From an uncultured Verrucomicrobiota bacterium (GTDB lineage Bacteria > Verrucomicrobiota > Verrucomicrobiia > JABWAM01), in contig CAZZBZ010000001.1 of the NCBI GenBank assembly GCA_964653025.1, positions 39,826-103,825 on the forward strand: a DNA stretch of 64,000 bases, read 5' to 3'. How positions within the stretch are numbered: position 1 is the stretch's first letter; every line of letters begins with the position of its first letter. A model generated the notes under the pieces. It ran no database searches. It was not told where the DNA came from and saw nothing but the letters and a program-made list of their open reading frames with translations. A program made the position numbers and the translations under genes. Of the stretch, positions 2,165 to 63,989 are shown piece by piece.

Positions 2165-2298
2165 AAGAGTTCTCCGTTTTCGGCTCCCCGTCTACCACCC
2201 CCCATGAGGCGGAACAAGGGGGAGGCGTTGGTTGTTTTTGCAGACCATTTCCAATCACCGTGGGGCGTCTCCCTCTTCCTCCCCCCCCGCTTACCGGT

Positions 2299-2361
2299 CG
2301 CCGTTGGCAGCGGCTCCTCCCTCACTCGAATCTCTGCCTGTAGGAGCCGTTGCCAACGGCG
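2299..2361. promoter_or_regulatory. Imperfect 19-bp inverted repeat (CGCCGTTGGCAGCGGCTCC ... GGAGCCGTTGCCAACGGCG) in the divergent promoter region between the PEP-CTERM LamG gene and the GntR-family regulator gene; candidate operator
   Basis: Read directly: arms at 2299-2317 and 2343-2361 are reverse complements with 1 mismatch, separated by a 25-bp spacer. Location between divergently transcribed genes. Confidence 0.4.
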
Positions 2362-2519
2362 ATCCTTTCAGCCGTTGATCGACCAAACCGTGAACCTGAA
2401 CCGCCAACCCCACTTTGGCCTGTTGGCCAGACCATCTGAACCTATTTGCTTCCCCGACGCCCTCCGGTCAGGCATGCTGCCGAACCGTGCGGGGGGAGCC
2501 TCCCCTCGCGAGGGCGACG

Positions 2520-4213: not shown

Positions 4214-4385
4214 CACCCGTCAACTCCTGGAACGCCAGGCCGCATGGCAAAAGACGCGGATTCACCGTTCCTGGCCCGACAAGATTCGCGAGGCCGAAAG
4301 GCTTCGTGAGGCACTCGTGGAGTTGCGCCGGTCGCGCCCCGGTCGGGACAGAATCAATCAGCGCGAGCCGCGCCTCCCACAATAG
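4206..4385 (+). CDS. Small hypothetical protein (59 aa) translationally coupled to the upstream gene via an ATGA overlap
   Basis: ATG at 4206 overlaps the stop of the 3662-4213 ORF (gaATGAatag). Translation: MNSTRQLLERQAAWQKTRIHRSWPDKIREAERLREALVELRRSRPGRDRINQREPRLPQ. Below the 60-aa cutoff of the supplied track, found by reading the sequence. Confidence 0.3.
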   Translation: MNSTRQLLERQAAWQKTRIHRSWPDKIREAERLREALVELRRSRPGRDRINQREPRLPQ

Positions 4386-34292: not shown

Positions 34293-35339
34293 TCAGGGGA
34301 CCACCACCGGACGGTCGATCCAGAAAGGGAGCTGCATGCCGCGGCGGAAGGCGGCGAGGGATTTCGGCGAGGAGTTGATGCGGAGGTTACTCCAGGTCTC
34401 ATCGGCATTCTGCCAGCGTTCGTGCCAGTAGACCGCGGCCTTGAGGCGAGGATAGTCCCTCGGCATGCGGTCAAATGCCTCCTCGAAGAAGGCATCCTTA
34501 CTTCCCTGGTTTGGAAACTCCCCGACGCCCCACTCGGCAAACATGATTGGCTTGGTCGGGTGCAGTCTCACGATCTCGTCGTAGGGCATCCGCGCGACAT
34601 CCGTGAAGGTAAGCCAGCCTCCCTTGGAGTTTTGTTTTCCGTAAACACTGAGGCCAAGCCAGTCCACCACATCGTCCCCGGGGTAGTAGGTTTGTATGGT
34701 GTTCCACGAGGCGACCGGCCAGGAGTAGTTCTGGGCGTGGTAGACCCACTCCACGTTGCGGGCGCCCTCGGCGCGCACGATGCCGACGACTCGACGGTAG
34801 GCGGCGATAAAGCGTTCGGGGCCGTCGGCTTTCTTCGGGTCACCGAAGCGGCGGGTTTCCCCGCCGCCCTGCACGGGACCGCCCCACGGGAACCAGTCGC
34901 CGTTCATTTCGATCCCAAAGGCCACGAGGAGCGGGATGCGGGTCGCACGAGCCTTCCGCGCCCAGTCGCGGAGGTAAGCGTCGAACTTCCCCTCGATGAT
35001 CCGGTCGAGGGAATACTCGGGTTGGGGCTCGTTCTGGCGGTAGGGCGGCCCCCACGGCGACCAGAAGATGAGAGGGATGGCGTTTGCGCCCCGCACGACC
35101 TCGACCTGGGCGGAGGGAAATCCCTTCCGTCCCCAATAACTGGAAAAGGCGACGATCGCCTGGCGCCGCCCCGAAAGCTTCTCGAAGGCGGAGATGGTGG
35201 ACGGGGTCAGGTCGTCCTCGGCCTCGCCGAGATCCATGTAGGCGCCGACGTAGGCACCGCGCGGGGGGATGGCGAGGTGCTGGGCGAGAACCGCAAGCGT
35301 CGATGCAAGGAAGAGGATAAGGAAGGGAAGGCGTATCAT
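34293..35339 (-). CDS. Secreted glycoside hydrolase, GH26-like (clan GH-A), last gene of the EPS/exosortase cluster
   Basis: Signal peptide MIRLPFLILFLASTLAVLA. GAYVGAY ... ipLIfwspW ... GKFDAYLRDWA ... LLVAFGIEMNGDWFPWGG matches the GH26 core pattern (..R.gHE.NG.W.pWg). 4-bp overlap with the upstream synthase gene. Confidence 0.6.
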   Translation of the reverse strand: MIRLPFLILFLASTLAVLAQHLAIPPRGAYVGAYMDLGEAEDDLTPSTISAFEKLSGRRQAIVAFSSYWGRKGFPSAQVEVVRGANAIPLIFWSPWGPPYRQNEPQPEYSLDRIIEGKFDAYLRDWARKARATRIPLLVAFGIEMNGDWFPWGGPVQGGGETRRFGDPKKADGPERFIAAYRRVVGIVRAEGARNVEWVYHAQNYSWPVASWNTIQTYYPGDDVVDWLGLSVYGKQNSKGGWLTFTDVARMPYDEIVRLHPTKPIMFAEWGVGEFPNQGSKDAFFEEAFDRMPRDYPRLKAAVYWHERWQNADETWSNLRINSSPKSLAAFRRGMQLPFWIDRPVVVP

Positions 35340-38300: not shown

Positions 38301-38699
38301 GGCGCCGCACGATCGAGCGCGGCGAGGGTGGAGGGGTTTTCCTCGGGAAGGAAACCGAGGGTGATGGGCTCCGGGGGACGGGGAAAGGCCGCACTCGCGG
38401 AACGCCGGCGATCTCGCTCCGCTGTGCCGAGCGAGTGGCGGAGGGCGGGGGTTTCACTGCGCCGCATCGCGCGGCGCGTATCCCGGAGGGGATGTTGGAG
38501 GCCGCGCAACTGGGAACGGAGGGTAGCGACCGAGGAGGGAAGGCGAAGGAAGGGTTGCTCGAGCAGCGAGCGCGCAAATAACAACGCAGCGGCAAAGAGG
38601 ACAAAGCACCCCAGGAGCGCCGCTACGCGGATGATCTTCCAGCGAAGGCCGCGGGCATCGTGGAAGATAAACTGGCGCGTGGGCGCGGGGACGGTCATC
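35336..38699 (-). CDS. Multidomain membrane polysaccharide synthase/modifier: N-terminal TM + GH18-like (chitinase-fold) domain + CE4 polysaccharide deacetylase (NodB) + processive GT2 synthase (QxxRW) + C-terminal TM bundle
   Basis: About 1121 aa from MTVPAPTRQF, followed by a TM helix. GH18-like block (GLAVDFEEVDP ... GIAVWKLGDEDPSLWD). CE4 block (IALTFDDGPDRHWTPQILDILKAEGVTATFFIVG ... HEVGVHTYTHP ... LLHDGGG). GT2 block (VSVVIAAYNEE ... VVVVDDGSSD ... SIDADT ... QRFRWAFG). Then multiple C-terminal TM helices. The ORF upstream of the chosen start would overlap the preceding gene by about 370 bp and is rejected. Confidence 0.75.
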
Positions 38700-38715
38700 T
38701 CGGGGGACGGAAAGC

Positions 38716-41289
38716 TCAGAACCACGTTCGACGGGAACGGGAGGAGGCGAGCCCGACGTCGTGGGCCGCGAGCTCCACGATCTGGGCCACGCGGTGGCGG
38801 AGTCGCGTGCTCGCCCAGAGGAGGGCGGTAAGCCAGACGGGGACAGCGCAGAACCAGGCGCCGATGAGGCGGTAGCCCTCGGGGGAGGTCGTGGCCTCGA
38901 ATCGGAGCCATGCGAGAAGGCTCAGGACGGCGACGGGGATCCCGACCATCCGCGAGAAGAGAGTGGGGATCGGGTGGAGGCGAATGCGGGTGAGGCGCTT
39001 GCCATCGCCATGTTCCTCGGTGAGGGAGAGGAGACGGACCTGCCACCATCGGTTGCCGTAGACCTGGTAGTCCCAGTTGGTCCAACCCGTGTCGGCGGAG
39101 TACTTCCAGCCCTCCTGGTCGAGGCGCTTCTTGAAGGAAGAGAGGAAATGCTCACGGCCCGAGCCAGAATCGCTCCAGAAGGTGAGCAGGGCGGGACGGT
39201 CCCATTTCACGACCTGGGCACTACTGGGAGCGGGGGCACCGACGATCTTGCGCGGGGTGCGTTTCTTGCGGACCCAGGTGGAGTAACGGGCCCAGCCTCG
39301 GGCGACCGGCTGCCAGAAGGCGAGGGCGGCAATGAGGAGGCGGCTCCACGGGCGGCGGTAGCGCGTCTCGATCCTCGCGCGGAGCGCATAGGAGACCGCG
39401 ATGCCAAGGGATCCGGCAAACATCGCGGCAGGGAGGTACCAGATCGCATGCACCTGCAGCGAGACGAGAAGGGCCGCGAGGGCCATGGCATTCCACTCAA
39501 GGCTGCCCATGAAGAGCACGACATCCGAGGTACGCCCGGGATAGACGCACTGGAAAAGGCCCATTCCAAAGACGCCATGGTAGATGATGGGACGGTGGAC
39601 GACAGAGGAGAAGTTGGCGCCGCCGTAGACGCGGCCGCGCCAGCGGGCGGAGCCGGTCGGCCCGAAGTAGACGAGGTGCTTAAAGCGGAGCAGGGCCTCG
39701 GCCTCGCCATAGCCCTCCTGCTGCTTGAGGTAGGCGCGGACATTGAAGCGGCGGTGATGCCAGACGATGGCGGAGGGGCTGAACCCGATGCGGTACCCCT
39801 GCTGCATGAGCCGCCAGCAGAGATCGACATCGTCGCCCGCCTTGCGGTATTCGGGATCGAAGCCGCCGACGAGATCGAGCGCCCACTTGTGGAAGGCCAT
39901 GTTGCAGCCGGGGATATGCTCGGCCTCCACGTCGTCGATGAGCACGTGGCTGGGCTGGCCCGGGGAGGCGGCAACGCAGGCCTGCACCCAGTTCCGCGCG
40001 GGGGGCGAGATATTCGGACCGCCAACGGAGGCAAAGCCTCCCTGATCGAGCGTGCCGACAAGATAGTAGAGCCAGTCCTTGTCTGCCATGCAGTCACTGT
40101 CGATGTAGGCGATGATCTCGCCGTGCGCGGCCTGCATTCCCACGTTGCGAGCCACGCTCAGGCCGAGGTTCTCTTGGTGGAGGTAGCGGACCTTGGAAAA
40201 CTCGCGGGCAATGGACTCCGTATTGTCGGTGGAGCCATCGTCCACGAGGAGGACCTCGAAGTCGGGATAGTCCATCTGGAGGAGAGAGGTGAGGCATGCC
40301 TCGAGCGTGCGAGCGCCGTTATAGGAGCAGACCACCACGGAGACCGGGGGGGTGCGCGGGAGGGGGACACGGGTGTTGCCCTCAAAAAGGGAGTGGACCC
40401 GGGCGAGGGCTTTTTTGGGCCTTCGATCCGCGCCCACGAGGCCGAACTTCCAGTCTTCGATGAGGTGCCCACCGGTGAACCACTCGTCGGTCCACGAGAA
40501 GAGGATTGTGCCAGCGAGGCCAAGGCGGGCGACCGCGCTGATGTGCCAGCCCAGCAGTTCAGCCTGTTCCTCCTCGGAGTGGCGCACGGTGTCCATGCCA
40601 AACTCGCTGATGATGAGGGGCTTCTCCCCGGCAAGGTTCTGCAGGCGGGCGAGGTAACCCTCGAAGTCCCGCTGGCGATGCAGGTAGACATTGTACGAGA
40701 AGAAATCCACGGCATTCGGCAGGAGGTACTCAGTGGGAGGATAGTTCGCGTAGGTGAGGAGCGGACGGGGGTCGGCTTGGCGGGCGGCGTCTACGAGATC
40801 CTCGAGGAAGGCCTCGACCTTTCGGGACCCGTACCAGCGGACGATGCTGGTCGGGATCTCGTTGCCCACCGCCCAGGCGAATAGCGCGGGATGGCCCCGT
40901 CGCTCGCGGGCGGCGCTCTCCACGCGACGGAGGATGGATCGGCGGCTCCGCCGCCCATCGAGGAAACAGACGTGCTGCTCCCATGGAATCGTGGCGTACG
41001 CCTTGAGCCCCGCACGCTCGCACTCGTCAAGGAACCAGACCGGAGGAGGGTGGTAAAGGCGGACCGTGTTGATGCCTGCCGCAGTCATCTGCGTGAAGTC
41101 GGCGCGCACCTTCGCGGGTTCCGGAAGGAATATGGGGGCGCCCCCCTCATCACGGGGCGGGAACGGCCCGTAAGTCACCCCCTTGACGAAGAACTTACGC
41201 CCGCCGTGGAAGAAAAACTTCGAGTTGGCGACGATGCGAGGGGCGCTCGTGCGAACGACTTCAACTTCGTCCATGGAATCCTGAGACAT
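38716..41289 (-). CDS. Fused glycoside hydrolase (clan GH-A TIM barrel) + family 2 glycosyltransferase with C-terminal membrane domain
   Basis: 857 aa. N-terminal GH-A block with acid/base FAWAVGNEIP and nucleophile LIISEFGMD. GT2 block PPVSVVVCSYNGARTLEACLTSLLQMDYPDFEVLLVDDGSTDNT ... YIDSDC. About 6 TM helices in the C-terminal 300 aa. Confidence 0.7.
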   Translation of the reverse strand: MSQDSMDEVEVVRTSAPRIVANSKFFFHGGRKFFVKGVTYGPFPPRDEGGAPIFLPEPAKVRADFTQMTAAGINTVRLYHPPPVWFLDECERAGLKAYATIPWEQHVCFLDGRRSRRSILRRVESAARERRGHPALFAWAVGNEIPTSIVRWYGSRKVEAFLEDLVDAARQADPRPLLTYANYPPTEYLLPNAVDFFSYNVYLHRQRDFEGYLARLQNLAGEKPLIISEFGMDTVRHSEEEQAELLGWHISAVARLGLAGTILFSWTDEWFTGGHLIEDWKFGLVGADRRPKKALARVHSLFEGNTRVPLPRTPPVSVVVCSYNGARTLEACLTSLLQMDYPDFEVLLVDDGSTDNTESIAREFSKVRYLHQENLGLSVARNVGMQAAHGEIIAYIDSDCMADKDWLYYLVGTLDQGGFASVGGPNISPPARNWVQACVAASPGQPSHVLIDDVEAEHIPGCNMAFHKWALDLVGGFDPEYRKAGDDVDLCWRLMQQGYRIGFSPSAIVWHHRRFNVRAYLKQQEGYGEAEALLRFKHLVYFGPTGSARWRGRVYGGANFSSVVHRPIIYHGVFGMGLFQCVYPGRTSDVVLFMGSLEWNAMALAALLVSLQVHAIWYLPAAMFAGSLGIAVSYALRARIETRYRRPWSRLLIAALAFWQPVARGWARYSTWVRKKRTPRKIVGAPAPSSAQVVKWDRPALLTFWSDSGSGREHFLSSFKKRLDQEGWKYSADTGWTNWDYQVYGNRWWQVRLLSLTEEHGDGKRLTRIRLHPIPTLFSRMVGIPVAVLSLLAWLRFEATTSPEGYRLIGAWFCAVPVWLTALLWASTRLRHRVAQIVELAAHDVGLASSRSRRTWF

Positions 41290-52335: not shown

Positions 52336-52470
52336 GGAAAGAACCCAGAATCATGCCACAAAACAGGTAAAACCGAAACGTCGAACTGGCGCCCGGCGCC
52401 TTTCGTTGGGTGCCTTCCGGTTTCTCTTGCGAGAAAGGGTCGTAAATCGCACGATGCGCCCTGTTTTCCC

Positions 52471-53382
52471 ATGGCAACCCCTCTCAGTTTCTGGATCGCA
52501 TTCCACGTCGGCGTCTTCGCCGTGCTGGCGGTAGATCTTTGCCGAAAGCCGGGTGCGGTCTCCTACCGCGAAGCGGGGATCTGGAGCGCGATCTGGGTGG
52601 CCCTCTCCCTCGGATTCAACGCGGTCGTCTGGCGACTGAAAGGCCCCGACAAGGCACTGGAGTTCCTGACGGGCTACCTCGTCGAATACTCGCTGAGCGT
52701 GGACAACGTCCTCGTGTTCGTCCTGGTGATGGAGTACTTCCGCGTCCCCGCCGCCTACCAGCACCGTGTGCTTTTCTGGGGCGTGTTCGGGGCCATCGTC
52801 CTTCGCGGGGCGATGATCGCCGTGGGGGTGGTGCTCGTCCACCAGTTCCAATGGGTCCTCTATGTCTTCGGGGCATTCCTCGTCTTCACGGGGATCAAGA
52901 TGTTTTTCTCCGGCGATGAGGGGGTCGATTTGGAAAACAATGGAATCCTGCGCTGGTGCAAACGCATCATGCCGGTGACCCACGACTACGTCGGGGCAAA
53001 GTTCATTGTGCGGAATGGGGCGTTCTGGGCCTTTACCCCGCTCGCGCTCGTCCTGGTCTTCGTGGACTTCATCGACATCGTGTTCGCGGTGGACTCGATC
53101 CCCGCGATCTTCGCCATCACGCAGGATTCATTCATCGTCTACACCTCCAACATCTGCGCCATCCTTGGCCTGCGCTCACTCTACTTCCTGATCTCGGGAG
53201 CGGTGCGACGGTTGGTCTTCCTGAAAATGGGGCTCTCCATCGTCCTCTCGTTCATCGGGATGAAGATGCTCGTGGCCCACTGGTGGGCGCTCCCGACCTG
53301 GCTCGCGCTTCTCGTCGTGGCCCTGATCCTTGGCGTGTCGGCCATCGCCTCGCTGGTCTCCGAACGTCACGGTAAACGCTAG
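52471..53382 (+). CDS. TerC-family integral membrane protein
   Basis: Start [23 protein letters not shown]. TerC motifs [15 protein letters not shown] and [12 protein letters not shown]. About 9 TM helices. The raw ORF's upstream extension is rejected. Confidence 0.85.
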
Positions 53383-53523: not shown

Positions 53524-55404
53524 TCACTTCGCGGCGGGAGCGTTCGTCGAAACCGCGGAAGCCGCAAGAGACGGTTTCGTGAGAAAGTCGGCAGTCAGGA
53601 TCAGAAAATCATCGCGGGTGATCTGGGTGAGGAGCAGCTGATTCTTCCAGATGAGGCTGTTCGTGCCACCGACCTCGCGGGCGACCACCAACTCCTGGGT
53701 CACCGTCTTGCCCTCAACCTCGCAGGTCAGCATCAGGACCGCGGCGGGCGGGTCGAAGCCCTGCTGCTTCGCGGTTTCATTGAGCGCGACGCCTTCGATC
53801 CTCGCCACCTCGAAGCGCTGAAAGCGGTTAAGAAGCCGCTGCCACGGGGTCTCATTCAGAACGCCCGAGGCACCCTCACCCACCCTCCATTTGCCCTCCT
53901 TCGTCTTTTCCATGACAAGGGTGGACTTCCCCTTCTTCACGGTCACCGACTTGATTGTGTCCTTCTTGATCTCGAAAAGCACGCGGGAGCGCAGTTCCAG
54001 CGCACTTTTCGGAAGCGCGGCGGCATCGGCAGCGTCCACGGCGTAAATCGAGGATTCGTCGGCGCGCTTCACGTAAGCAAGCTTCTTCACGGGATCGGCC
54101 TTGCCCACCGCAAGGTCAAGAAGCACGGTCGCAGCGGCGCTGGCCACGGCGGGAGGGGCGTTGGTCTCCGCGGGTGCGGGGACCTTGGGCTCGCCGGCGC
54201 GGTCGCGCAAGACTACCTGCCCAAGCGGAGCCTTGAGTCCGTACTTGTCGAGGTCGGTGAGGACGTCGGCCGCAAACTCCTTCACCTGCATTCCTGAGAG
54301 GCGTGCGAGGAACTTGTCCACGAGCTCGTTGTCGGCGGCCACCTTCTCGGGCTGGATAATCCGCCACTGGTCATTCGTCTTCTGGAGGAGAAGGGTCGCG
54401 GCGCGGTTGCGCACCTCGATCTCGCGAATGTCGGCGGCCGCGAAAGGGGCGACGTCACGGTCGCGGATCTCGTTGAGTGGGCGCGCCGCATCGGCGGCGA
54501 AGGCAACCGGGACGGAGACGATGGAGTTCTGGCCCTTCACGCGGGCAGCAAGCTTCTTGTCGTCGGACTTGAGCTTCGCGCCGAGAGTGAGGGTATTGAC
54601 CGCGTCCTGTTTCTCAATGCGAACGCTGATCTCCTGCGAGGGCTCCTCAATGCCGTATTCCCGCGAGGCAGCGGGGTCCTCGCTCAGGAAATCGTCGGCA
54701 CGCAGCGAGGCCAGTTGACGAAGAAACTCCTCCACCCTGTTGCGATCGGCGCGGGCGTTGAGGGGCTGGACGATCCGCCAGTTCTGATTGGTACGCGCGA
54801 GCTCGACAAGTTTGCCCGCGGCCCGCAACTCGATGCGCTGAACCTGGTCTCCCGTAAACTCGAAGAGCGAGCGCTCGCGGTAATCCTCGATCTTCTTCTC
54901 GATGCGAGTCGCAAGGTACTTGTCCACGAGGTGGACCTCCTTGCTCCCCTTCACCTGGACGTAGAGGGCGTCCCCCTGGCGCGCCTCGTTTCCGAGGAAG
55001 AGGGTGCTCTCGGATTTTGGGGTGCGAAGGGTGACGGATGCGCGAGGCTTCTCGAGTCCGTAGTCGGCAAGGGTAAGCTTTGCCTCGGAGATGGCGCGCT
55101 CGGAAAGGCGGCGGCGGCTCTCAAGAAACTCAAGGCCACTGAGGATCCCGTCCATCTCGCCCGAGGCAGCGCGCACCTGGAGGGGACGGGAGAAGGACCA
55201 CTTGCCCTGCTTGCGATCGAAGACAAAGTCGCGGTCGGCACCCTTGATCTCAAGGCGAGTGACGTCGACGGCCTTGAAGTCGAGGACGCGCCTCTGTTGC
55301 TCGGAAGCCTGGTCGGTGGTGGGGAGCTTCTTTTTCGCAAGGAAATACCCTCCCGCGACCAGTGCCGTGAGCAGGAGAAGGGTGAGCGTGCTCTTGATTT
55401 TCAT
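53524..55404 (-). CDS. GldG-associated periplasmic protein (DUF4340-like), terminal gene of the Gld-like ABC operon
   Basis: 626 aa. N-terminal TM anchor (LTLLLLTALVAGGYFLA), then a long soluble region with repeated modules. Position after gldG-like as in the conserved gldA-gldF-gldG-DUF4340 arrangement. Family call is by synteny and recognition only. Confidence 0.5.
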   Translation of the reverse strand: MKIKSTLTLLLLTALVAGGYFLAKKKLPTTDQASEQQRRVLDFKAVDVTRLEIKGADRDFVFDRKQGKWSFSRPLQVRAASGEMDGILSGLEFLESRRRLSERAISEAKLTLADYGLEKPRASVTLRTPKSESTLFLGNEARQGDALYVQVKGSKEVHLVDKYLATRIEKKIEDYRERSLFEFTGDQVQRIELRAAGKLVELARTNQNWRIVQPLNARADRNRVEEFLRQLASLRADDFLSEDPAASREYGIEEPSQEISVRIEKQDAVNTLTLGAKLKSDDKKLAARVKGQNSIVSVPVAFAADAARPLNEIRDRDVAPFAAADIREIEVRNRAATLLLQKTNDQWRIIQPEKVAADNELVDKFLARLSGMQVKEFAADVLTDLDKYGLKAPLGQVVLRDRAGEPKVPAPAETNAPPAVASAAATVLLDLAVGKADPVKKLAYVKRADESSIYAVDAADAAALPKSALELRSRVLFEIKKDTIKSVTVKKGKSTLVMEKTKEGKWRVGEGASGVLNETPWQRLLNRFQRFEVARIEGVALNETAKQQGFDPPAAVLMLTCEVEGKTVTQELVVAREVGGTNSLIWKNQLLLTQITRDDFLILTADFLTKPSLAASAVSTNAPAAK

Positions 55405-55429
55405 CGGCGGCAGTGGGCGCGAAAGGCGA

Positions 55430-56914
55430 TCACTTGCGACGTCGGACCCAGACCACGAAACCGATCGCCGCTACGGCGGCGGGAATCCCCACCACCATCG
55501 TGAGAAAAATGCCGCGACGCTGGAAGGCGTCGAGATTGAGGTTGAACTCCTGCGGGGCTTTCGCCGCGATGCCGAGGAGCTGCTGGCGCTTGAGGAGCCA
55601 GTTCACGGCGTTCATAAAGAGGTCGGCGTTGCCCCCGGTCAGGGAGTCGTTCCGGGCGAAACGACTCGATCCAAAGACCACGAGGCGCATCCCCTCGCGC
55701 TCCATCTCGCCGGCCGCGCTCGGCTCGACAGCAACCGCCACGGGCACCGGCCCCTTGCGATCCTTGTCGTCGAGTTGCGCCTTCTGGTCGCGCTGGAGTT
55801 TGCCGACATCGCTCTCCGCCCACGAACCGGCCGGGGTGCGCACCAGCACGGTCACGCGGCGGGCGGGATCGTTCGCGGAGGCGGCGTCCACGGAACGAGC
55901 CAAGGGGAGAAAGGTGGCGATCTCCTCCTTGCGAAGACTGTCGGTTACAGGATGCGTGCCGTAATCGGCGCAGGGAACGCTGGTGAGAAGGGCCTCGCCC
56001 CCGAGGCGGTCGCGGATACGGATGAGGAGGACATCGTTGCCGGCCCTTACCCCATGGTCGACAAGAAGCTTCTCGATGCCGGTGTCGTAGCGGAAGCCGT
56101 CGAGCAGGAGCAGGACACGACCATTCGCCGCGAGGAAGTCGGCAATCGCCCTGATCTCGAAGTCGGCGAAAGGCTTCTGGGGGCCGCAGACGATGAGCAC
56201 ATCGCAGTCCTTCGGTACGCTCTGGGCGGTGGCAAGATTGAGCTTCTCGACTCGCAGGTTGTCGCGGCGGAGAAGGGTGGAGACCTTCGAAAAACCGGTC
56301 TTGGGTTCAAAGTCGTCGAAACTCCCCTCCCCGTGCCCCTCGAGGAAGCAGACCTTCGCCTGTTTCTCCTCGAGGACGTTCTGGATCGCGGAGGTGAACT
56401 GCTGCTCCCCCTTGAAGGCACGAATCCTCCCGCCTCCGCCGCCCATGGGCGACGAGCGATCGAACTCCACGAGGTCGGTTACCTGCACGAACTTGTTGCG
56501 GCTCTTGTGAACGAAGACCACCACGTTCGGGACGCGTACACCGTACTCCTTGGCCAGCTTCTCGGCATTGAGGGGATCGCGATCCGGATCCACGTAGCGA
56601 ACCTTCACCTGCTTCGAGAGGTTGCCGTACTCGGCGAGCAGGTTCTGGACGTCGTCGAAAACCTTCTGGGTGATCGGGTCGCGGCTGTCGGGCTGGAAGA
56701 AGACGATGATCTCAACCGGGGCGCGGAGGCTCTTCACGAGCTCGACCGTCTTGCCGGAGAGCTTGTAGTAGTCGCTCTTGGAGAGGTCGAGTTTCGACGG
56801 GTGCCAGCGCTGGATGCCAAGGTTGGCGAAAACCACCAGGGCCCCCGCGAGGAGGACCTGGAGGACGACATTGAAGCCGATCGCAAAGCGGCGGGGAGCA
56901 GAGCCTTTGTCCAT
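55430..56914 (-). CDS. GldG-like ABC-transporter auxiliary (substrate-binding-like) component
   Basis: 494 aa. N-terminal TM (FNVVLQVLLAGALVVFANL), large periplasmic domain, C-terminal TM (GIFLTMVVGIPAAVAAIGFVVWV). Architecture typical of GldG. Confidence 0.7.
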   Translation of the reverse strand: MDKGSAPRRFAIGFNVVLQVLLAGALVVFANLGIQRWHPSKLDLSKSDYYKLSGKTVELVKSLRAPVEIIVFFQPDSRDPITQKVFDDVQNLLAEYGNLSKQVKVRYVDPDRDPLNAEKLAKEYGVRVPNVVVFVHKSRNKFVQVTDLVEFDRSSPMGGGGGRIRAFKGEQQFTSAIQNVLEEKQAKVCFLEGHGEGSFDDFEPKTGFSKVSTLLRRDNLRVEKLNLATAQSVPKDCDVLIVCGPQKPFADFEIRAIADFLAANGRVLLLLDGFRYDTGIEKLLVDHGVRAGNDVLLIRIRDRLGGEALLTSVPCADYGTHPVTDSLRKEEIATFLPLARSVDAASANDPARRVTVLVRTPAGSWAESDVGKLQRDQKAQLDDKDRKGPVPVAVAVEPSAAGEMEREGMRLVVFGSSRFARNDSLTGGNADLFMNAVNWLLKRQQLLGIAAKAPQEFNLNLDAFQRRGIFLTMVVGIPAAVAAIGFVVWVRRRK

Positions 56915-56939
56915 GTTCGAATGAAGTTGAGAAATTTGG

Positions 56940-57689
56940 TCAGGTCTTCCACTGGCGCGACTGCACGATGCGGTGCGTCACAAAAAGGAAGAAGCCGGTG
57001 CCGGTAAAGTAGAAGACGACCCGCTTCCACTCCACCACCCCGCGGGAAAGCTCCTGCATGTGGGCAAGGATCGAGAAGGACTCAAAAAACTCACGACTCT
57101 GACCGGCGGCGTTCAGATAGAAGTAGATGCCGGCAAAGAACAGTCCGCAGCTCATCGCGAATGAAATCACGGCCGCGATGATCTGGTTGCGCGTGCTCGC
57201 CGAAGCCATGCATCCGATCGCCACGAGAAGCATCCCCATCATGAACAGCCCGAAATAGCCCCCCGCCACGGGGCCGATGTCCAGCGGGGTCTTATCGTGC
57301 GAGAAGTGGCGCAACACCCAGACGTAAGCCAGGGTCGGCAGCCAGATCAGGCAGAAGAAAAAGAGGCCGCTCAGGAACTTTGCCGCCACGTACTCCGCAT
57401 CGCGCAACGGGGCGGTCATCAGCGCCTCAATCGTACCCGTGCGCTTCTCGTCCGCGAAAAGCCGCATGGTGATCACCGGCGGCACGACCAGCAGGATGAT
57501 CCAGGTGAACATCCCGTTGAAGAACCACATCAGCGGCGTGTAATCGCTCGGGCCCTCCGTCAGGATCGTCACGATCATATTGAAACTGATGCCCGTCAGA
57601 CCCAGCACGCACACCCCCACGATATAGGCGATCGGGGAACAGAAATACGCGAGCAACTCGCGCCTGAACAGGATGGCAACGTTTCTCAT
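56940..57689 (-). CDS. ABC-2-type transporter permease (GldF-like)
   Basis: 249 aa, 6 TM helices. ABC-2 permease pattern with the conserved EKR.GT.E.L.. motif (ADEKRTGTIEALMTAPL). Confidence 0.75.
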   Translation of the reverse strand: MRNVAILFRRELLAYFCSPIAYIVGVCVLGLTGISFNMIVTILTEGPSDYTPLMWFFNGMFTWIILLVVPPVITMRLFADEKRTGTIEALMTAPLRDAEYVAAKFLSGLFFFCLIWLPTLAYVWVLRHFSHDKTPLDIGPVAGGYFGLFMMGMLLVAIGCMASASTRNQIIAAVISFAMSCGLFFAGIYFYLNAAGQSREFFESFSILAHMQELSRGVVEWKRVVFYFTGTGFFLFVTHRIVQSRQWKT

Positions 57690-57693
57690 AATC

Positions 57694-58629
57694 CTAGTCG
57701 TCTTCCGTGGTGATTTGGACGAAGACGTCCTCGAGAGTCTGGTGGCGGCGTGTCAACTCGCGGATTCCCCAACCGCGCCCGCGGGCTGCCGCGGCCGCCG
57801 CCTCACGCAGGTCTTCCTCGCGCTGGGGATGCACCGTCACGCGACAGTACCCACCCTCGAGCGTCTCGGCGTCCGCGCCGCGCGCGCCGGGGAGAATCCC
57901 GAGTGCCGCTTTCGCCGCCTGCGCTTCAGCGCGCAGTTCGATCACCGTCTCGCCCCCTCCCATGCGAAGTCGCTTGAGGTTCTCCGGCGTGTCGCTGGCC
58001 ACAATCTTTCCACGGTTGATGATCAACACCCGCGAGCACGTCATTTCCACCTCGGTCAGGATATGTGTCGAGAGGAGCACCGTGTGCGTGCGCGCGAGGT
58101 CCTTGATCATTGCGCGCACCTGGCGGATCTGGTTCGGGTCGAGCCCGATCGTCGGCTCGTCGAGAATGATCAACTCGGGGTCGTGGACGAGCGCGTCCGC
58201 GAGCCCGACGCGCTGGCGGTAGCCCTTGGAAAGTTGGCCGATAATTTTACGGGTAACGTCGGCGATGCCACAGCGCTCGCTCACCTCCTGCACGCGCGCC
58301 TTGCGCCGCGAACGCGGCACCCCCTTGAGCGCCGCGCGGAAGTGCAGGTACTCGCAAACCCGCATCTCGGGATAGAGCGGGACATTCTCGGGCATGTAAC
58401 CAATGCGGCGACGCACCTCCAGCGGCTGCTGGTGGATGTCGAAGCCGGCCACGATCGCCGTGCCCGAGGTCGCCGGCATGAAGCAGGAAAGCATGCGCAT
58501 CGTCGTGCTCTTCCCTGCCCCGTTCGGGCCGAGGAAGCCGACGATTTCGCCCTTCTGGACGGAAAAGGTGAGGCCATGGACCGCCGTAAAACCCGCGTAA
58601 CGCTTGACGAGATTGTCGACCTGGATCAT
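57694..58629 (-). CDS. ABC transporter ATP-binding protein (GldA-like)
   Basis: Walker A GPNGAGKST. Signature LSKGYRQRVGLA. Walker B LIILDEPTIGLD. H-loop. 311 aa. Confidence 0.9.
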   Translation of the reverse strand: MIQVDNLVKRYAGFTAVHGLTFSVQKGEIVGFLGPNGAGKSTTMRMLSCFMPATSGTAIVAGFDIHQQPLEVRRRIGYMPENVPLYPEMRVCEYLHFRAALKGVPRSRRKARVQEVSERCGIADVTRKIIGQLSKGYRQRVGLADALVHDPELIILDEPTIGLDPNQIRQVRAMIKDLARTHTVLLSTHILTEVEMTCSRVLIINRGKIVASDTPENLKRLRMGGGETVIELRAEAQAAKAALGILPGARGADAETLEGGYCRVTVHPQREEDLREAAAAAARGRGWGIRELTRRHQTLEDVFVQITTEDD

Positions 58630-58739: not shown

Positions 58740-59783
58740 ATGTCACGCAACGGAATTCTCGCCGCCGGCAACTGGATCGTGGACCGCATCAAGACCGTGG
58801 ATCGCTGGCCGGAGCAGGATGCCCTCGCCCTGATCGAGAGCGAGGGGCGGGGCAGTGGGGGCTCGCCCTTCAATCTTCTCCTCGGGCTGTCGCGCCTCAA
58901 GGCGGGCCTCCCCCTCGATGGCATCGGGCTCGTGGGCGACGATGCGGACGGAGTCTTTATCCTCGATGAGTGCCGCAAGGCCGGTGTGGGCATCCGCTTC
59001 CTCCGCAAGCTGCCCGGGCAGCCCACTTCCTACACTGACGTGATGACGGTGAAGTCCACCGGCCGCCGCACCTTCTTCCACAACCACGGTGCCAACGCGT
59101 TCCTGGCCGAGCCGCACTTTGACCCGGACGCCTCGAACGCCCGCATCTTTCACCTGGGATATCTTCTCCTCCTGAACTCGCTCGACATGCCTGATCCGGA
59201 GTTCGGCACGCGGGCGGCCCGGGTCCTCGCGCGGTACCGCGGGGCCGGCTTCAAGACGAGCGTGGACGTGGTCAGCGAGCTTTCCGACCGGTTCGGTCGC
59301 GTGGTGGCGCCCGCCCTGCCGCAGGTGGATTACCTCATCCTGAACGAACTCGAGGCGGGGCACACCACGGGCATCCCCCTACGCCAAGGTGAAAAGATCG
59401 ACGATGCCGCCCTACCGCGCGCGGCCCAAGCGTTGTTCGAGATGGGAGTCCGCGAATGGGTGATCATCCATTTTCCCGACGGGGCCTTCGCGCGCTCGCG
59501 ATCGGGCGAGGAGTTCGCCTCGCGGTCCTTCGAGTACCCGGAGGGATGGATTCGCAGCACCGTGGGCGCGGGAGATGCCTTTTGCGGCGGCGTACTTTAC
59601 GGACTCCACGAGGGCTGGGGAATGCAGGCGTGCCTCCGTCTCGGTGCGTGTAGCGCAGCTGCCAGCCTTTCGCACTCCACGTGCACCGAGGGAATTCTCC
59701 CCCTGAAGGAGACGCTCGCCCTGGCGGATCGCTTCCCCCCTCGTCATCTTTTCCCACTTTCCTCAGCGCGCCTCCTCATGTAG
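58740..59783 (+). CDS. PfkB-family carbohydrate kinase (ribokinase-like)
   Basis: N-terminal ribokinase-fold region. C-terminal anion-hole motif STVGAGDAFCGGVLYGL. Confidence 0.8.
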   Translation: MSRNGILAAGNWIVDRIKTVDRWPEQDALALIESEGRGSGGSPFNLLLGLSRLKAGLPLDGIGLVGDDADGVFILDECRKAGVGIRFLRKLPGQPTSYTDVMTVKSTGRRTFFHNHGANAFLAEPHFDPDASNARIFHLGYLLLLNSLDMPDPEFGTRAARVLARYRGAGFKTSVDVVSELSDRFGRVVAPALPQVDYLILNELEAGHTTGIPLRQGEKIDDAALPRAAQALFEMGVREWVIIHFPDGAFARSRSGEEFASRSFEYPEGWIRSTVGAGDAFCGGVLYGLHEGWGMQACLRLGACSAAASLSHSTCTEGILPLKETLALADRFPPRHLFPLSSARLLM

Positions 59784-59793
59784 GTTGTCATCC

Positions 59794-61623
59794 ATGGCGT
59801 TCCGTTTTCCGTTCTCCAAGTCAAAGGAACCGTTGCCGACGGCGTCTTCGGCCCCGCCCTCGCTCCCGCCCGCGGCGATCCCGAAATCATCCCTCCAGCC
59901 GCCTCAGTTGGTCGCCGCTCCCTCCTCCACCATGGTTCGCCCCTTGAACCAGGTGAAAGCGATCGTTCCCGGTCAGGGCACCCTCGCCACCGCACTGAAA
60001 GCCGCCACCGCCCAGCCCCCGCCCATCGTCTCGGGAGGATCCCAATCCGCGGTATTCAAGCCCAGGGTCAACGTCACCCTCGGGAGAGCAGTTCCTCCCG
60101 CCACGACGATTCCCCGCTTGCCCTCGACCAACGCGGAAACCCCGCCATCTTCCGGATCGGATGCCCCCTCCTCCATTGATTTTTCGTTCGCGGATCTCGC
60201 ACCCCTCCTCCCCGACAACCTCGTGCTCGCCAGTGCTCCGCACGGCACGCTCCCCACCACCGTTTCCATCCCCATGTCGGAGATCCTTCCCCAGCTTGCC
60301 ACGGGCAAGGTGCAGGTCCACCTCTCCTCGATCACCCATGGGATCCCGCCCGAGGCCATCGACCCCGCGATCGCATCCAGCGGGGATATCCGCATCAAGA
60401 TTCCCCTGCACCTGATCATCCCCAGGCTTCCTGCCTCGGCGATCTCGCTTCCTTCCTCCCAGTCCAAGCAGGAACTCGATCCCAAAATCGCCGCTCCCTT
60501 TACCGAGCGGGACGCCTCACACGCCGCCACCACGCCACCGGCCGACTCCCCCGAAGCTGCGCCGCCCACGGCTCCCGTCCAGATCCAACCCCTCCCGCCG
60601 CGCGCACCGGTGCCTCCTCCATCGAAACCCGTGCGGGCGACCCCCCCCCCGGCCCTTCCTTCCGCAACGCCAAAGCCGTTCGTGGCCCCAACGACACCGT
60701 CCGCAGGCGTCGGCCCGACCCTCCTCGCACCTTCCGGCCTCAAACTTCCCTCGATTCCGAAGCCTCCCAGTCCGTCTCCGTCACCCGCCGTACGCCCCCC
60801 GGTTCCTGCCGTTCCACCGATCTCCACCACGCCCAGATCCGTCTCCATCCCCCCGTGCCCCCCGGCCGCCATGCCCGCTCCCGCGGCTCCCAGGACCGCA
60901 ATCGCCCCAATCCTCTCGCCCGCCGCCGCCCCACGCGCAATGCCGACGCTCCGATCCTCTCAGCCTCCCGCGGTGCCGAGACCCCTTTTAATCCCGCCCG
61001 CTCCGCCGGCCGCGATGCCGGTCTCCGTACCTCCCCTGAACATCAAGCTCCCGCCAATACGGACCGCTCCGACCCCACCGATCTCGGCCCCCTCGATTTC
61101 GACCCCATCGCTCCCGAAGAGTGCACCGCTCACGCCCGAGGCATTTCTTGCTCCGAAACCCTTGCCCCGCCCCTCGAAGGTCATCGCCGTGGCCCCCCCA
61201 GGCAAGGAGGAACCCTCGATCCTCCAGTTGTTGGGCCTGCCGGCAACGCAAACGTTCCGCCTGCAGGACCTCGTGGAGTTGGCGCGCCAAAAGCTCGACG
61301 TCCCCGGCCTCCTCGTTGCCGCACAGGACGGCCTCCCACTCGCCGGCAAGATGCCGGAGGGACTCGACGCGAACGCGTGGAGCGGGATCGGGCCGCAACT
61401 CTTCCGTAAGTTCAGCCATGAGGGCAAGGCCCTCGAACTCGAAAAGCCGCGCCGCTGCCTCCTCGGCCTCGGACCAAACTGGTTCACCCTCTGGAGCGAG
61501 CAGGGCATCTACCTGATTTGCTGCCACGGCGCCGAGAAGGTAAACCCCGAGTTTGACCAGGCCAGCTCGATGCTGGCCGCCGGGCTCGCCCGCTTCTGCA
61601 AGCAGCACGCCACCGCGGCGTAG
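59794..61623 (+). CDS. Proline/alanine/serine-rich low-complexity protein (~450 aa) with a C-terminal Roadblock/LC7-like (MglB/MglC-like) domain
   Basis: Long PxxP-rich region (PPAAMPAPAAP ..., SPSPSPAVRPPVPAVPP ...). C-terminal about 130 aa (LVELARQKLDVPGLLVAAQDGLPLAGKMPEG ... WFTLWSEQGIYLICCHGAEKV) has a roadblock-like alternation. Sits immediately upstream of mglA. Start taken at ATG 59794 (the raw ORF begins at TTG 59785). Confidence 0.5.
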   Translation: MAFRFPFSKSKEPLPTASSAPPSLPPAAIPKSSLQPPQLVAAPSSTMVRPLNQVKAIVPGQGTLATALKAATAQPPPIVSGGSQSAVFKPRVNVTLGRAVPPATTIPRLPSTNAETPPSSGSDAPSSIDFSFADLAPLLPDNLVLASAPHGTLPTTVSIPMSEILPQLATGKVQVHLSSITHGIPPEAIDPAIASSGDIRIKIPLHLIIPRLPASAISLPSSQSKQELDPKIAAPFTERDASHAATTPPADSPEAAPPTAPVQIQPLPPRAPVPPPSKPVRATPPPALPSATPKPFVAPTTPSAGVGPTLLAPSGLKLPSIPKPPSPSPSPAVRPPVPAVPPISTTPRSVSIPPCPPAAMPAPAAPRTAIAPILSPAAAPRAMPTLRSSQPPAVPRPLLIPPAPPAAMPVSVPPLNIKLPPIRTAPTPPISAPSISTPSLPKSAPLTPEAFLAPKPLPRPSKVIAVAPPGKEEPSILQLLGLPATQTFRLQDLVELARQKLDVPGLLVAAQDGLPLAGKMPEGLDANAWSGIGPQLFRKFSHEGKALELEKPRRCLLGLGPNWFTLWSEQGIYLICCHGAEKVNPEFDQASSMLAAGLARFCKQHATAA

Positions 61624-61633
61624 CCAATCCGCC

Positions 61634-62278
61634 ATGTCGATCATCAACTACGGCAGCAAGGAGATTCAGTTCAAGATCGTCTACTACGGTCCCTCGCTGT
61701 GCGGAAAGACGACCAACCTGCAGTACATCCACTCCCAGGCCGCCCCGGAGAATAAGGGCGACATGGTCTCTCTCGCCACCGCCGCCGACCGCACCCTCTT
61801 CTTCGACTTTCTCCCGCTGAACGCCATCGCGATCAAGGGCTTTCGCACCAAGTTTCAGCTCTACACCGTCCCCGGGCAGGTCATTTACAACACCACCCGC
61901 CAACTCGTCCTCCGCAGCGTGGACGGCATTGTCTTCGTGGCTGACTCCCAGTGGGAAAAAATGGAGGAGAACATCGAAAGTTTCCGAAACTTCGAGGAGA
62001 ACCTTCTCAAGCAGAACACCTCCCTCGACGACGTCCCTTACATCCTCCAGTACAACAAACGCGACCTCCCGAACGTGGCGCCCGTCAACTACATGGAGTA
62101 CGTGCTCAACAACCGGACCATGCGCGTGCAGTCGTTCGAATCCTCGGCTGCGACCGGCCAGAACGTCTTCGCCTCCCTCAACGCGATTTCTCGCCTGCTG
62201 CTTTTTAAGTTCACCCGGGAAAGCGACCTCGCCGACAAACGTTCCAAAACCACCGTGCTCATGTCCACGGTCCGCTGA
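61634..62278 (+). CDS. mglA: Ras-like small GTPase MglA (gliding-motility/polarity GTPase)
   Basis: [35 protein letters not shown] ... [11 protein letters not shown] ... LYTVPGQV ... [10 protein letters not shown] ... QYNKRDLPN is near-colinear with Myxococcus xanthus MglA ([35 protein letters not shown] ...). About 20-aa C-terminal extension. Confidence 0.9.
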   Translation: [214 protein letters not shown]

Positions 62279-62282
62279 CCCC

Positions 62283-62759
62283 ATGGAGACCATCCCGTTT
62301 CTCACCAAGGAAGATGTCGCCGAGATCGACAGCCTTCTCGGCGACTACCTCCAGAAGTCCGACGCCAACTTCACGATCGTGATCGATCGCGGGGGCACCG
62401 TGATCGCCCAGTGCGGTGAGGGAGAGAGCGCGGACATCACGATCATCGCCGCCCTCGCCGCCGGCTCCTTCGCCGCCACCAAGGAACTTGCCCGCCGCAT
62501 CGGGGAGTCTGAATTCAGCGCCCTCTACCACCAGGGAAGCAACTACCACATCTTCATGAGTTCGCTCGACGAGCACACGATCATCATCACTCTCTTCGAC
62601 GAGAAGACCACCGTCGGCCTCGTCCGCTTCTACACCGTCAACGTCACCCCCGCGCTCAGCACCCTCCTCGACCGACTTCGCAACCGCGGCGCATCGAACG
62701 CTCCCGAGCTTTCCGCCACCGGTGCATTGGCCCCCTTCGGCCCCGGCACCCGGAACTAA
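62283..62759 (+). CDS. mglB: MglB (Roadblock/LC7-domain GTPase-activating protein for MglA)
   Basis: 158 aa. FTIVIDRGGTVIAQCGE ... AALAAGSFAATKELARRIGESEFSALYHQGSNYHIFMSSLDEHTIIITLFDEKTTVGLVRFYT parallels M. xanthus MglB (VVFLVDKNGQLISSAG ... ASLTAGNVAAMGGLAKLIGENEFPNQFHEGAKDSLYMTIVG ... VIFDNRTSLGLVRLRI). 4-nt gap after mglA. Confidence 0.8.
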   Translation: METIPFLTKEDVAEIDSLLGDYLQKSDANFTIVIDRGGTVIAQCGEGESADITIIAALAAGSFAATKELARRIGESEFSALYHQGSNYHIFMSSLDEHTIIITLFDEKTTVGLVRFYTVNVTPALSTLLDRLRNRGASNAPELSATGALAPFGPGTRN

Positions 62760-62762: not shown

Positions 62763-62900
62763 CCGATCCCGCCGTGGGCTTGCCACGCGTGGGACACAGC
62801 GGGCGACCCCATCACCACGGCCACGCCTTACCGGTAGCCCGTCGTGTCCCTACGACGGGTCTTCTCCGACAGATCCCGTGCTGGGACAGCACGGGCTACC
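62763..62900. repeat. REP/REPIN-like element, second copy: degenerate 5' part + GGTAG-CCCGTCGT-gtccct-ACGACGGG hairpin + inverted unit CCCGTGCTG-gga-CAGCACGGG-CTACC, between convergent mglB and the O-antigen-ligase-like gene
   Basis: Read directly. Stem GTCGT/ACGAC here versus GTGCT/AGCAC in the 53454-53480 copy, a compensatory double change that preserves the hairpin. Shared loop GTCCCT and 5' GGTAG. Confidence 0.7.
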
Positions 62901-63989
62901 ATGGGTAGGCGGCGGTGTCCCTTGGCAGAAAGAATTGGAGGGGCATGCTCCGTCGTGCCCGTGCGAAGCTGAGTGTTCACAAAACCCGACAGAACTGCAA
63001 CGCGCCCCGAGCGCCCCGAGCAGCACGAAGGCCGGCCACGCGTTCCCCACCAGGTAGAGATCGAAATCCACGAGCGAATGGATCGCAAAGGCCACGAGCC
63101 CGGCCCACACGAGTGTCCAGGGCCAGCGCTCTCGAACGGGGACGGTCCGCACGCGTCGCCACACGGCGAACAGGGTCCCCGGCAGCAGCACCGCGAAGGC
63201 CGCGAAACCCACGATCCCGCTATCGCACCACATCTGGAGATAGCTGTTGTGAACGAGTCGCGTATTCTCCGCATCCCACGCCTTGTAGCGGGGATAAAGT
63301 TTTGAAAAAGTGCCCGGCCCACTTCCCAGCACCGGGTAGTCCAGTCCGATCCGCCACGCGGCGCGCCAGTAATCCACCCGTGCCGAGAGGGTCCGCTTCC
63401 CCTTCTCGACCCCGCGCTGCCCGTAACCCGCCGCGAAACCGATCGTACCCAGAAGGAGAACCCCCACCGCAATCCCGATCGCCAGCCTTCGCCGAACCCC
63501 CCCCGCCAGCGAGAGGACAAGGGCGGTCGCGACCAGCGCCGCATAGCCCCCCTTCGACTGTGATTTCCAGAGGCAGAAAAGCAACGCAAGCCCCAGGGTC
63601 GTCCCAAGGGCAAGACGGAGGCGGAAGTTGCCTTCCCCTCTCCCCATCAAAACCCACGCCGCCACCAGAAAAATCGTGGTCGCCACGTACCCTCCGAGGG
63701 CATTGGGATAGACGAATGTCGCGAACACCCGCCCCCGGCTCACCCGCTCCCAGAGTTCGGGCATCCCCGCCCCCATCTCAGGGTGAGACTCGAGGAATTT
63801 CCGTGTCTCTTCCAGACCGCCAGTCGCCTGCCCGATCCCCGACCATGCCACGAGACATGCACCCACAAGCCAGCCCCCCAGCAGCCAGCGCAGCCCACGG
63901 TCGTCCCTCCCCAGCGCGCACCCGAGGACGTAGCCGACCACAAGCGATGCAAAGAGCGCCATCACCGCCCCACTCAGCGGGCGATCCAT
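62850..63989 (-). CDS. O-antigen ligase / Wzy_C-domain polymerase family membrane protein
   Basis: About 10 TM helices. Wzy_C signature ... RLVHNSYLQMWCDSGIVGFAAFAVLL ... The C-terminal ~45 aa of the ORF (Cys/Pro-rich) reads through the REP-like element and may not be genuine coding sequence. Confidence 0.65.
   Translation of the reverse strand: MDRPLSGAVMALFASLVVGYVLGCALGRDDRGLRWLLGGWLVGACLVAWSGIGQATGGLEETRKFLESHPEMGAGMPELWERVSRGRVFATFVYPNALGGYVATTIFLVAAWVLMGRGEGNFRLRLALGTTLGLALLFCLWKSQSKGGYAALVATALVLSLAGGVRRRLAIGIAVGVLLLGTIGFAAGYGQRGVEKGKRTLSARVDYWRAAWRIGLDYPVLGSGPGTFSKLYPRYKAWDAENTRLVHNSYLQMWCDSGIVGFAAFAVLLPGTLFAVWRRVRTVPVRERWPWTLVWAGLVAFAIHSLVDFDLYLVGNAWPAFVLLGALGARCSSVGFCEHSASHGHDGACPSNSFCQGTPPPTHGSPCCPSTGSVGEDPS

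Follow-up and report, generated by a model that had tools for sequence, protein, structure and literature searches.

A proline-rich Roadblock protein encoded directly upstream of mglA-mglB in Verrucomicrobiota, a possible scaffold between a small-GTPase switch and type IV pili

MglA and MglB form the best-understood bacterial small-GTPase polarity switch, and Myxococcus is the only genus in which it is known how such a switch is positioned and connected to the pilus motor. In M. xanthus, MglC bridges the Pro-rich polar scaffold RomR to MglB (PMC4719450, PMC10329633): RomR recruits MglC, MglC recruits MglB by Roadblock-Roadblock contacts, and MglA-GTP breaks the contact, with MglC binding RomR and a "KRK" patch of MglB, not MglA (PMC10329633). 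M. xanthus MglA is reported to control type IV pili (T4P) via effectors (PMC7519303, PMC7668184). The Myxococcus connectors (RomR, RomX, MglC, RomY, SgmX, and FrzS) are encoded at dispersed genomic sites, and the assignment of the guanine nucleotide exchange factor (GEF) is disputed (PMC13408092). A coupling of one MglA to two MglB-like proteins has also been noted in a survey of these GTPases (PMC4316618). Here, we describe a protein, given the working name X, that is encoded directly upstream of mglA and mglB in an uncultured Verrucomicrobiota bacterium (Verrucomicrobiia; JABWAM01). The locus lies in a stretch of 64,000 nt (the window) of contig CAZZBZ010000001.1 (GCA_964653025.1), and we document the gene structure, domain architecture, C-terminal Roadblock fold, family, and conserved synteny of X.

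Conservation of the X-mglA-mglB unit

The analysis covered 12 distinguishable lineages (loci numbered L001-L022; representatives of family clusters are designated P00xx), drawn from contig look-ups, two collection scans, and a uniform tblastn search of all loci. The scan of genome contigs gave two Verrucomicrobiia metagenome-assembled genomes (MAGs), and the metagenome scan, made with profile A7, gave 4 loci. We found that X lies directly upstream of an mglA homologue in all 12 lineages, with junctions of 4-30 nt, and that mglB follows mglA wherever the contig continues. The MglA proteins concerned are 63-100% identical to that of the window, and this identity stays at 63% or above while that of the X Roadblock domain falls as low as 26%, i.e., the three genes stay together as a unit even where their sequences have diverged widely. 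Its conservation in relatives had been set as a test in a first-pass annotation of this DNA, which had also placed four genes here (pfkB, X, mglA, and mglB) at positions that the open reading frames (ORFs) and Pfam matches confirm (Table 1).

Further analysis of the genes preceding X revealed a 570-580-aa ATPase directly upstream of it in 7 of the 12 lineages (L010, L011-13/20/22, L015, L016, L018, L021, and the P0023 contig), with a gap between ATPase and X of as little as 3 nt. The ATPase is itself preceded by a ~280-315-aa MshEN protein, and the three-gene unit is usually the distal part of a cassette ordered mshEN-pilB-X-mglA-mglB. The top NCBIfam match of the ATPase is the type IVa pilus PilB model TIGR02538, at 640-650 bits versus a cut-off of 675.65 and slightly above its GspE score. 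In two lineages (L011/L020 and L017), PATAN response regulators are encoded nearby; in Synechocystis, binding of such regulators to the pilus motor PilB1 has been reported (bioRxiv 10.1101/2021.06.11.447907), and the survey notes that some mglA genes of Groups 1 and 5 have PATAN genes nearby (PMC4316618). In L011 (3011-5344), L012, and L020 (1336-2535), a gene located two genes upstream of the cassette encodes a 777-aa fusion of Response_reg, PATAN (PatA_N), weakly matching protein-kinase, and FGE-sulfatase domains.

Both partners of X are readily recognised. In a PDB search, the window MglA matched the M. xanthus MglA structure at 1e-68 (56% identity), with residues 1-193 aligned colinearly, and the window MglB matched M. 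xanthus MglB at 9e-18, gap-free and colinear over residues 8-134 with A64 of helix α2 conserved, which bears out the initial view of both genes as genuine and near-colinear with those of M. xanthus. MglA has the same sequence as MFZ4693972.1 of a Verrucomicrobiia MAG and carries the P-loop GPSLCGKT, the G4 motif NKRD, and an intrinsic arginine finger (DRT) next to the G2 threonine, all aligned with their M. xanthus counterparts; its G3 motif is TVPGQ (YTVPGQ) in place of DxxGQ, and 4 nt separate the mglA stop codon from the start of mglB. A P-loop, an arginine finger, TVPGQ, NKxD, and a coupled mglB (within four genes) are the features given for Group 1 MglA by Wuichet and Søgaard-Andersen in 2014 (PMC4316618). 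The window MglA is of the Group 1 type on this count, a modest extension of that group to Verrucomicrobia because the survey's listing there has Group 5 MglA alone (PMC4316618). The protein ends in a C-terminal tail of ~20 aa (aa 195-214; window 62215-62275) that M. xanthus MglA lacks; its sequence does not vary within the window clade and is almost unchanged in L011.

MglB scored 43.5 bits against Robl_LC7 (PF03259; cut-off of 23) and is identified by these matches as a Roadblock/LC7 protein homologous to MglB, the GTPase-activating protein (GAP) of MglA. The cut-off of the NCBIfam equivalog NF052242, a Thermus-centred model, was not reached (62.7 versus 200 bits), and this model was still the best and only match. 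In one distant lineage (L014, 4475-5086), the MglB homologue has 203 aa, with a C-terminal extension that weakly matches the SHOCT domain.

Architecture and coding status of X

X is a basic protein (pI 9.9) with 20% Pro. No transmembrane segment or signal peptide was found in it (maximum KD19 of 1.23), and no Pfam or NCBIfam model matched the whole protein or either half even at an E-value of ≤10. X is predicted to be cytoplasmic and belongs to an unnamed family. Based on alignments of its relatives and a second AlphaFold2 (AF2) model, it divides into five parts, the first being an aromatic-basic N-terminal motif, MAFRFPF(F/S)KSK, which takes the forms M[AK][FL][RP]FPFFKSSK or MFxFLKxLF-like across the family. 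The second part, a basic stretch (aa 12-124), contains two short motifs, QG(S/T)LA(A/T)ALKAAT and QSAVFKP(K/R)VNVTL, that, like the N-terminal motif, are conserved in alignments A1, A4, and A5. The third part comprises a β-α domain (aa 125-220), predicted by AF2 with a pLDDT of ~90, followed by a PF(S/T)E(R/K) motif. This central domain contains repeat units of the type "h-x-h-P-h-x-x-h-h-P-x-L-P", such as EILPQLATGKVQV and IKIPLHLIIPRLP. A hidden Markov model (HMM) of the domain found it in 55 of the retrieved family proteins, always N-terminal to the Roadblock domain, in one copy in the window subgroup and in two copies in most other subgroups.

The fourth part is the Pro-rich linker, which is poorly conserved and indel-rich in alignment A1. 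Its length across the family varies from ~40 to >300 aa, with ~130-180 nt (~40-60 aa) separating the tblastn matches to the central and Roadblock domains in L020/L021, and in another subgroup the linkers are acidic in place of basic. The initial description of this region as about 450 aa of Pro/Ala/Ser-rich low complexity holds for the linker, 33% of which is Pro, whereas the conserved folded domain at aa 125-240 and the N-terminal motif had been missed. In L007 (Verrucomicrobiia MAG SJ867, 3900-4300), a near-perfect internal duplication of ~70 aa, in which PSPPPLPPLAP...PKPASVPTAPPAP occurs twice, suggests that the spacer grows and shrinks rapidly. For the window linker itself, an origin from tandem repeats was rejected, a single array of 15 nt and 2.7 copies having been found. 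A large subgroup (P0024-P0049; e.g., L010 3099-5225) combines two central domains and acidic linkers with a ComEA-like HHH_3 domain directly before the Roadblock domain.

The fifth part was modelled by AF2 from a four-sequence alignment (last 136 aa; mean pLDDT of 79, pTM of 0.77) and shows the topology α-β-β-α-β-β-β-α (H17-28, E32-37, E42-45, H53-69, E80-86, E89-96, E99-105, H112-133). A Foldseek search against the PDB returned 91 matches at an E-value of ≤1e-3, and every top match inspected was a Roadblock/LC7 protein; among the top matches were LAMTOR2/MP1 (LAMTOR2/3), Asgard Roadblocks, dynein LC7, the Streptomyces avermitilis CvnB type, and MglB 1j3w (TM of 0.70). X itself gave no match to PF03259 even at an E-value of ≤10; three relatives exceed the Robl_LC7 cut-off (P0028, 25.5 bits; P0039, 28.1 bits; P0061, 24.8 bits), and the 39-sequence family profile A3 matched Roadblock proteins in the PDB at 7.7e-11 (Robl_LC7 7f8f). 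The C terminus of X is thus a Roadblock domain whose membership at the sequence level is transitive via its relatives, and the structure check proposed in the first-pass annotation for its Roadblock-like C terminus comes out in favour of that assignment. A longin identity (Sec22b at 1e-3 in a single-sequence PDB search) was superseded by the fold and profile searches and is read as the known Roadblock/longin resemblance. An origin of the domain as a recent mglB duplicate was rejected on the hhalign comparison with the co-encoded MglB proteins (E-value of 0.054) and the lack of their Ala-rich α2 signature.

Long chance ORFs occur on both strands at this high-GC locus. The X ORF is open over 609-681 aa in other lineages, at 55-91% identity (L001, L004, L006 in part, and L007), and the alignment of the window protein with that of L001 has just 5 gap columns. 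Its GC content at third codon positions (0.78) is like that of the adjacent genes, and the Roadblock part differs from that of L001 by 16 codons with synonymous changes only versus 5 with non-synonymous changes. Because the ORF is open and alignable across lineages, and because of its third-position GC content and synonymous excess, X is taken as a real coding sequence under purifying selection and not a high-GC chance ORF.

Public gene calls on close relatives of X mostly comprise the last 116-144 aa only, together with spurious antisense ORFs across the Pro-rich stretch (Table 1), and since most entries are truncated, homologue searches based on a word index all but missed the family, returning 3, 1, and 11 matches. 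An exhaustive HMM/profile search with the X C-terminal alignment revealed the family, with 91 cluster representatives, and full-length homologues of 400-970 aa are called in many other metagenomes, where members are named "hypothetical protein" or "ComEA-like helix-hairpin-helix protein." The X family and its apparently new domain are largely hidden in databases because gene callers truncate in the Pro-rich region.

Candidate roles of X and its neighbours

The best explanation, which we hold with about as much confidence as doubt, is that X acts as a scaffold or adaptor coupling the MglA/MglB switch to the T4P assembly motor or base. X would be a third, dedicated component of the Verrucomicrobial switch, a cytoplasmic multi-domain protein whose Roadblock domain docks on the switch, either in the manner of M. 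xanthus MglC, on the Roadblock dimer of MglB, or in that of MglB, on MglA itself. Its N-terminal aromatic-basic motif and central domain would tether the complex to a cellular site, with the variable Pro-rich segment as a flexible spacer; the fact that the central and Roadblock domains co-occur in the family while the linker length varies was counted in favour of such an arrangement. Because most related lineages have the unit at the end of an mshEN-pilB-X-mglA-mglB cassette, the tether target would most likely be PilB or the pilus base, and the output would be where and when pili extend. X would then unite on one chain the functions that RomR (Pro-rich polar scaffold) and MglC (Roadblock adaptor) serve in Myxococcus. 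The idea of an MglC/RomR-like scaffold had been put forward at the outset and remains the best reading, although X is a member of neither family, as it has no receiver and is neither stand-alone nor an orphan.

Several observations weigh against the scaffold reading. The interactions of X, its localisation, and the pilus output are all what we infer. The PilB-like ATPases score just short of the equivalog cut-offs for PilB and for GspE alike and may be type II secretion ATPases. In the 64-kb window, tblastn detected no PilB, MshEN, or PATAN protein, and the window holds no ATPase of the PilB/PilT type; pilB no longer adjoins X in the window clade, for which the pilus link is an extrapolation. 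The central domain has no structural neighbour or known-structure homologue in the PDB that would illuminate its role, the helix-hairpin-helix domain (of DNA-binding type) of the P0024-P0049 subgroup is left unexplained by a scaffold, and the similarity between the X Roadblock family and the co-encoded MglB proteins is marginal (hhalign E-value of 0.054). At the positions of the M. xanthus MglB KRK patch (K14/R115/K120), the window MglB has E14, R115, and N120 in an ungapped alignment, and because R115 alone is kept, an MglC-like docking mode cannot be read from this sequence.

A bolder proposal, which we advance tentatively and regard as unlikely in its entirety, treats the five-gene cassette as a self-contained T4P polarity device, in which the central domain of X would bind the MshEN domain of PilB or the small MshEN paralogue and the Roadblock domain would act directly on MglA, e.g., as a GEF. 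If this is true, the cassette would encode motor, GEF/scaffold, GTPase, and GAP in order, and the X family would be the missing localisation and regulatory factor of MglA/MglB systems outside myxobacteria.

A doubtful but serious alternative to a scaffold makes X the nucleotide-exchange factor of MglA, or another direct regulator of its nucleotide state, with a Roadblock dimer acting on MglA-GDP and the operon reading GEF-GTPase-GAP. The GTPase gene is indeed bracketed by two Roadblock genes, and eukaryotic Roadblock/longin platforms regulate small GTPases, with Ragulator-Rag among the top structural matches of X. The most conserved Roadblock stretch of X includes "PQLF," located in model helix α2, and in the MglB dimer the two-helix side is made up of α2 (PMC10329633). 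Which protein serves as the GEF of MglA is also debated; according to a 2026 paper, RomRX is no GEF and MglB behaves as both GAP and GEF (PMC13408092). However, GEF activity on MglA has been demonstrated for no Roadblock protein, and MglC, the only characterised extra Roadblock protein, neither binds MglA nor alters its GTPase activity (PMC4719450, PMC10329633). Moreover, the sequence of X holds nothing diagnostic of exchange activity, and its large non-Roadblock part would be superfluous for a GEF.

It is rather improbable that X serves as a second MglB-type subunit or co-GAP, forming a heterodimer with MglB or working beside it as a bipartite, site-restricted GAP of the kind known from MglB/RomY or from 1:2 systems. 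Such an arrangement has precedents: the survey describes one MglA with two MglB-like genes in a subset of Group 1, one MglB belonging to the co-evolving clade (PMC4316618), and a bipartite Roadblock GAP complex is reported in M. xanthus (PMC9481161). X and MglB also align in register over α1-β3, but this is the marginal similarity given above, and the MglB orthologues encoded at these loci conserve an Ala-rich helix, AALAAGSFAAT, that is missing from α2 of X (D-A-N-A-W-S-G-I-G-P-Q-L-F-R-K). Profile A3 likewise lies nearer to generic Roadblock/LC7 proteins than to MglB, with no MglB match in the PDB at an E-value of ≤1.

We find it very hard to credit that the module serves the Gld-like ABC transporter, the Wzy_C/surface-polysaccharide machinery, or a gliding apparatus instead of pili, a link that the first-pass annotation had hinted at from the neighbouring genes. 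The ABC operon is indeed adjacent, divergent from pfkB at a distance of 110 bp (and not ~200 bp from the module, as first given), and the Wzy_C gene follows 90 bp past mglB, an arrangement repeated in L001/L002. The top NCBIfam matches of the ABC proteins are GldA, GldF, and GldG, which is as far as the original gldA-gldF-gldG naming can be upheld, for all three fall under the curated cut-offs (323.6 versus 402.6, 153.8 versus 288.5, and 67.1 versus 389.85), and the operon is best described as Gld-like and not as a bona fide Gld system. In addition, Wzy_C is absent downstream in L003/L004 (where PALP is found instead), in L007, and in all distant lineages, and the ABC operon lies beside X in no relative examined; the recurrent neighbour is pilB.

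Finally, the reading of the long ORF as a non-coding or mis-assembled C-rich artefact, leaving the C-terminal ~140 aa as a stand-alone MglC-like gene, has the short public calls, their antisense ORFs, and the abundance of spurious ORFs on both strands in its favour but is effectively refuted by an ORF alignable in at least four lineages down to 55% identity with its N-terminal motifs and central domain, by the full-length homologues called in many other metagenomes, by the pLDDT of the central domain, and by the coding pattern of codon-position GC content and synonymous versus non-synonymous changes.

The gaps between pfkB and X, X and mglA, and mglA and mglB are 10, 10, and 4 nt, and a scan found no terminator-like site on the (+) strand of this run; for both reasons, the four genes are likely co-transcribed. 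Upstream of X, pfkB is found in the window clade alone (window, L001, L004/L019, and L009), not in L007, where an agmatine-deiminase-like gene takes its position, or in more distant lineages, and because its adjacency is lineage-specific, pfkB probably has no functional role in the module.

Elsewhere in the window, a prepilin-type N_methyl and DUF1559 gene (228-1130, [−] strand) encodes a pilin- or pseudopilin-like protein and is the sole pilus-related gene seen there. At 34293-39085 on the (−) strand, a gene for a 1,249-aa PgaB/PgaC-like protein, in which a polysaccharide deacetylase is fused to a family-2 glycosyltransferase, lies beside a GH26-like gene; the region, ~20 kb away from MglAB, resembles a locus for exopolysaccharide synthesis. 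Between these genes and the ABC operon, the segment 49399-53382 holds uvrA (978 aa, [−] strand) and a gene for a TerC-family membrane protein ([+] strand, ~52462-53382); the listed TerC ORF of 437 aa starts too far upstream and overlaps uvrA.

Table 1. Positions of X, its parts, and the adjacent genes in the window, and of public gene calls over an X homologue
Feature	Position (nt)	Strand	Size or residues	Remarks
ABC ATPase / ABC-2 permease / ABC_transp_aux (GldG-like, DUF7088) / DUF4340 operon	53524-58629	−	four genes	
pfkB-family sugar kinase	58740-59783	+		Pfam PfkB, 7e-35
X, Pro-rich	59794-61623	+	609 aa from ATG	612 aa from in-frame TTG at 59785
X, N-terminal region	59794-60165	+	aa 1-124	predicted disordered; pLDDT <50 over most of aa 11-120
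X, central domain and motif	60166-60513	+	aa 125-240	conserved β-α fold
X, Pro-rich linker	60514-61203	+	aa 241-470 (230 aa)	33% Pro; pI 12; low complexity
X, Roadblock/LC7, divergent	61204-61623	+	aa 471-609 and stop	core DGLPLAG...P.GLD...PQLFRK
mglA	61634-62278	+	214 aa	Pfam Ras/Arf
mglB	62283-62759	+	158 aa	Pfam Robl_LC7
Wzy_C gene	62850-63989	−		downstream of mglB
Public call over X, L001 contig	809-1615	−		L003/L004 and L006 similar
Public call over X, L001 contig	1865-2074	−		
Public call over X, L001 contig	2079-2513	+		

Comparison with described MglA/MglB systems

Neither MglA/MglB modules as such nor additional Roadblock paralogues or 1:2 MglA:MglB couplings are new (PMC4316618, PMC4719450). 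Full-text literature searches on MglA/MglB with Verrucomicrobiota, on MglA/MglB with MshEN, and on Roadblock with proline-rich and pilB returned nothing relevant, and three things appear undescribed: the X family, including its architecture, N-terminal motif, and central domain; the invariable place of X upstream of mglA-mglB; and the pilB-X-mglA-mglB cassette.

The nearest precedent by function is the M. xanthus RomR-MglC-MglB chain. Like X, its MglC (MXAN_5770; MglB_orphan1 clade) is an extra Roadblock protein accompanying MglA and MglB with a sequence far from that of MglB. MglC is stand-alone, consists essentially of a single Roadblock domain, and is encoded away from mglBA, whereas X has 609 aa, an extra folded domain, and long disordered regions and is always encoded directly upstream of mglA (10 nt in the window). 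No sequence affiliation of X to MglC was detected, and one of the three MglB residues that bind MglC is conserved here. RomR shares with X a long Pro-rich disordered region and a proposed role as landmark or scaffold for MglA/MglB, but it has an N-terminal receiver, a Glu-rich C terminus, and no Roadblock domain; X gave no Response_reg match in Pfam, its N terminus is predicted to be disordered, and its C terminus is a Roadblock domain and not Glu-rich.

The 1:2 systems resemble the present locus in having one mglA and two Roadblock genes within four genes, only one of them a canonical, co-evolving MglB (PMC4316618). The survey describes their members as MglB-family homologues (PMC4316618), whereas here the second Roadblock domain ends a large multi-domain protein, the GTPase resembles Group 1 MglA, and there is a link of the unit to pilB. 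SgmX and FrzS, the MglA-GTP effectors that activate M. xanthus T4P, are like X in being proposed physical links between the switch and the T4P machinery; SgmX, however, is a tetratricopeptide-repeat protein without a Roadblock domain, is not encoded with mglA or pilB, and shows no homology to X. Outside bacteria, the Roadblock domains of Ragulator/LAMTOR are among the top structural neighbours of X. Ragulator is tethered to the membrane through its disordered LAMTOR1 subunit; the complex is eukaryotic and multi-subunit, with tether and Roadblock domains on separate chains, and the likeness to X is an analogy only.

Compared with these systems, the Verrucomicrobiia and related metagenomic lineages have a compact cassette in which a single multi-domain Roadblock protein is encoded between pilB and mglA-mglB. 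Such a minimal, genetically linked system makes testable how MglB and MglA are anchored, how the switch is linked to PilB, and whether a Roadblock protein can act as a GEF.

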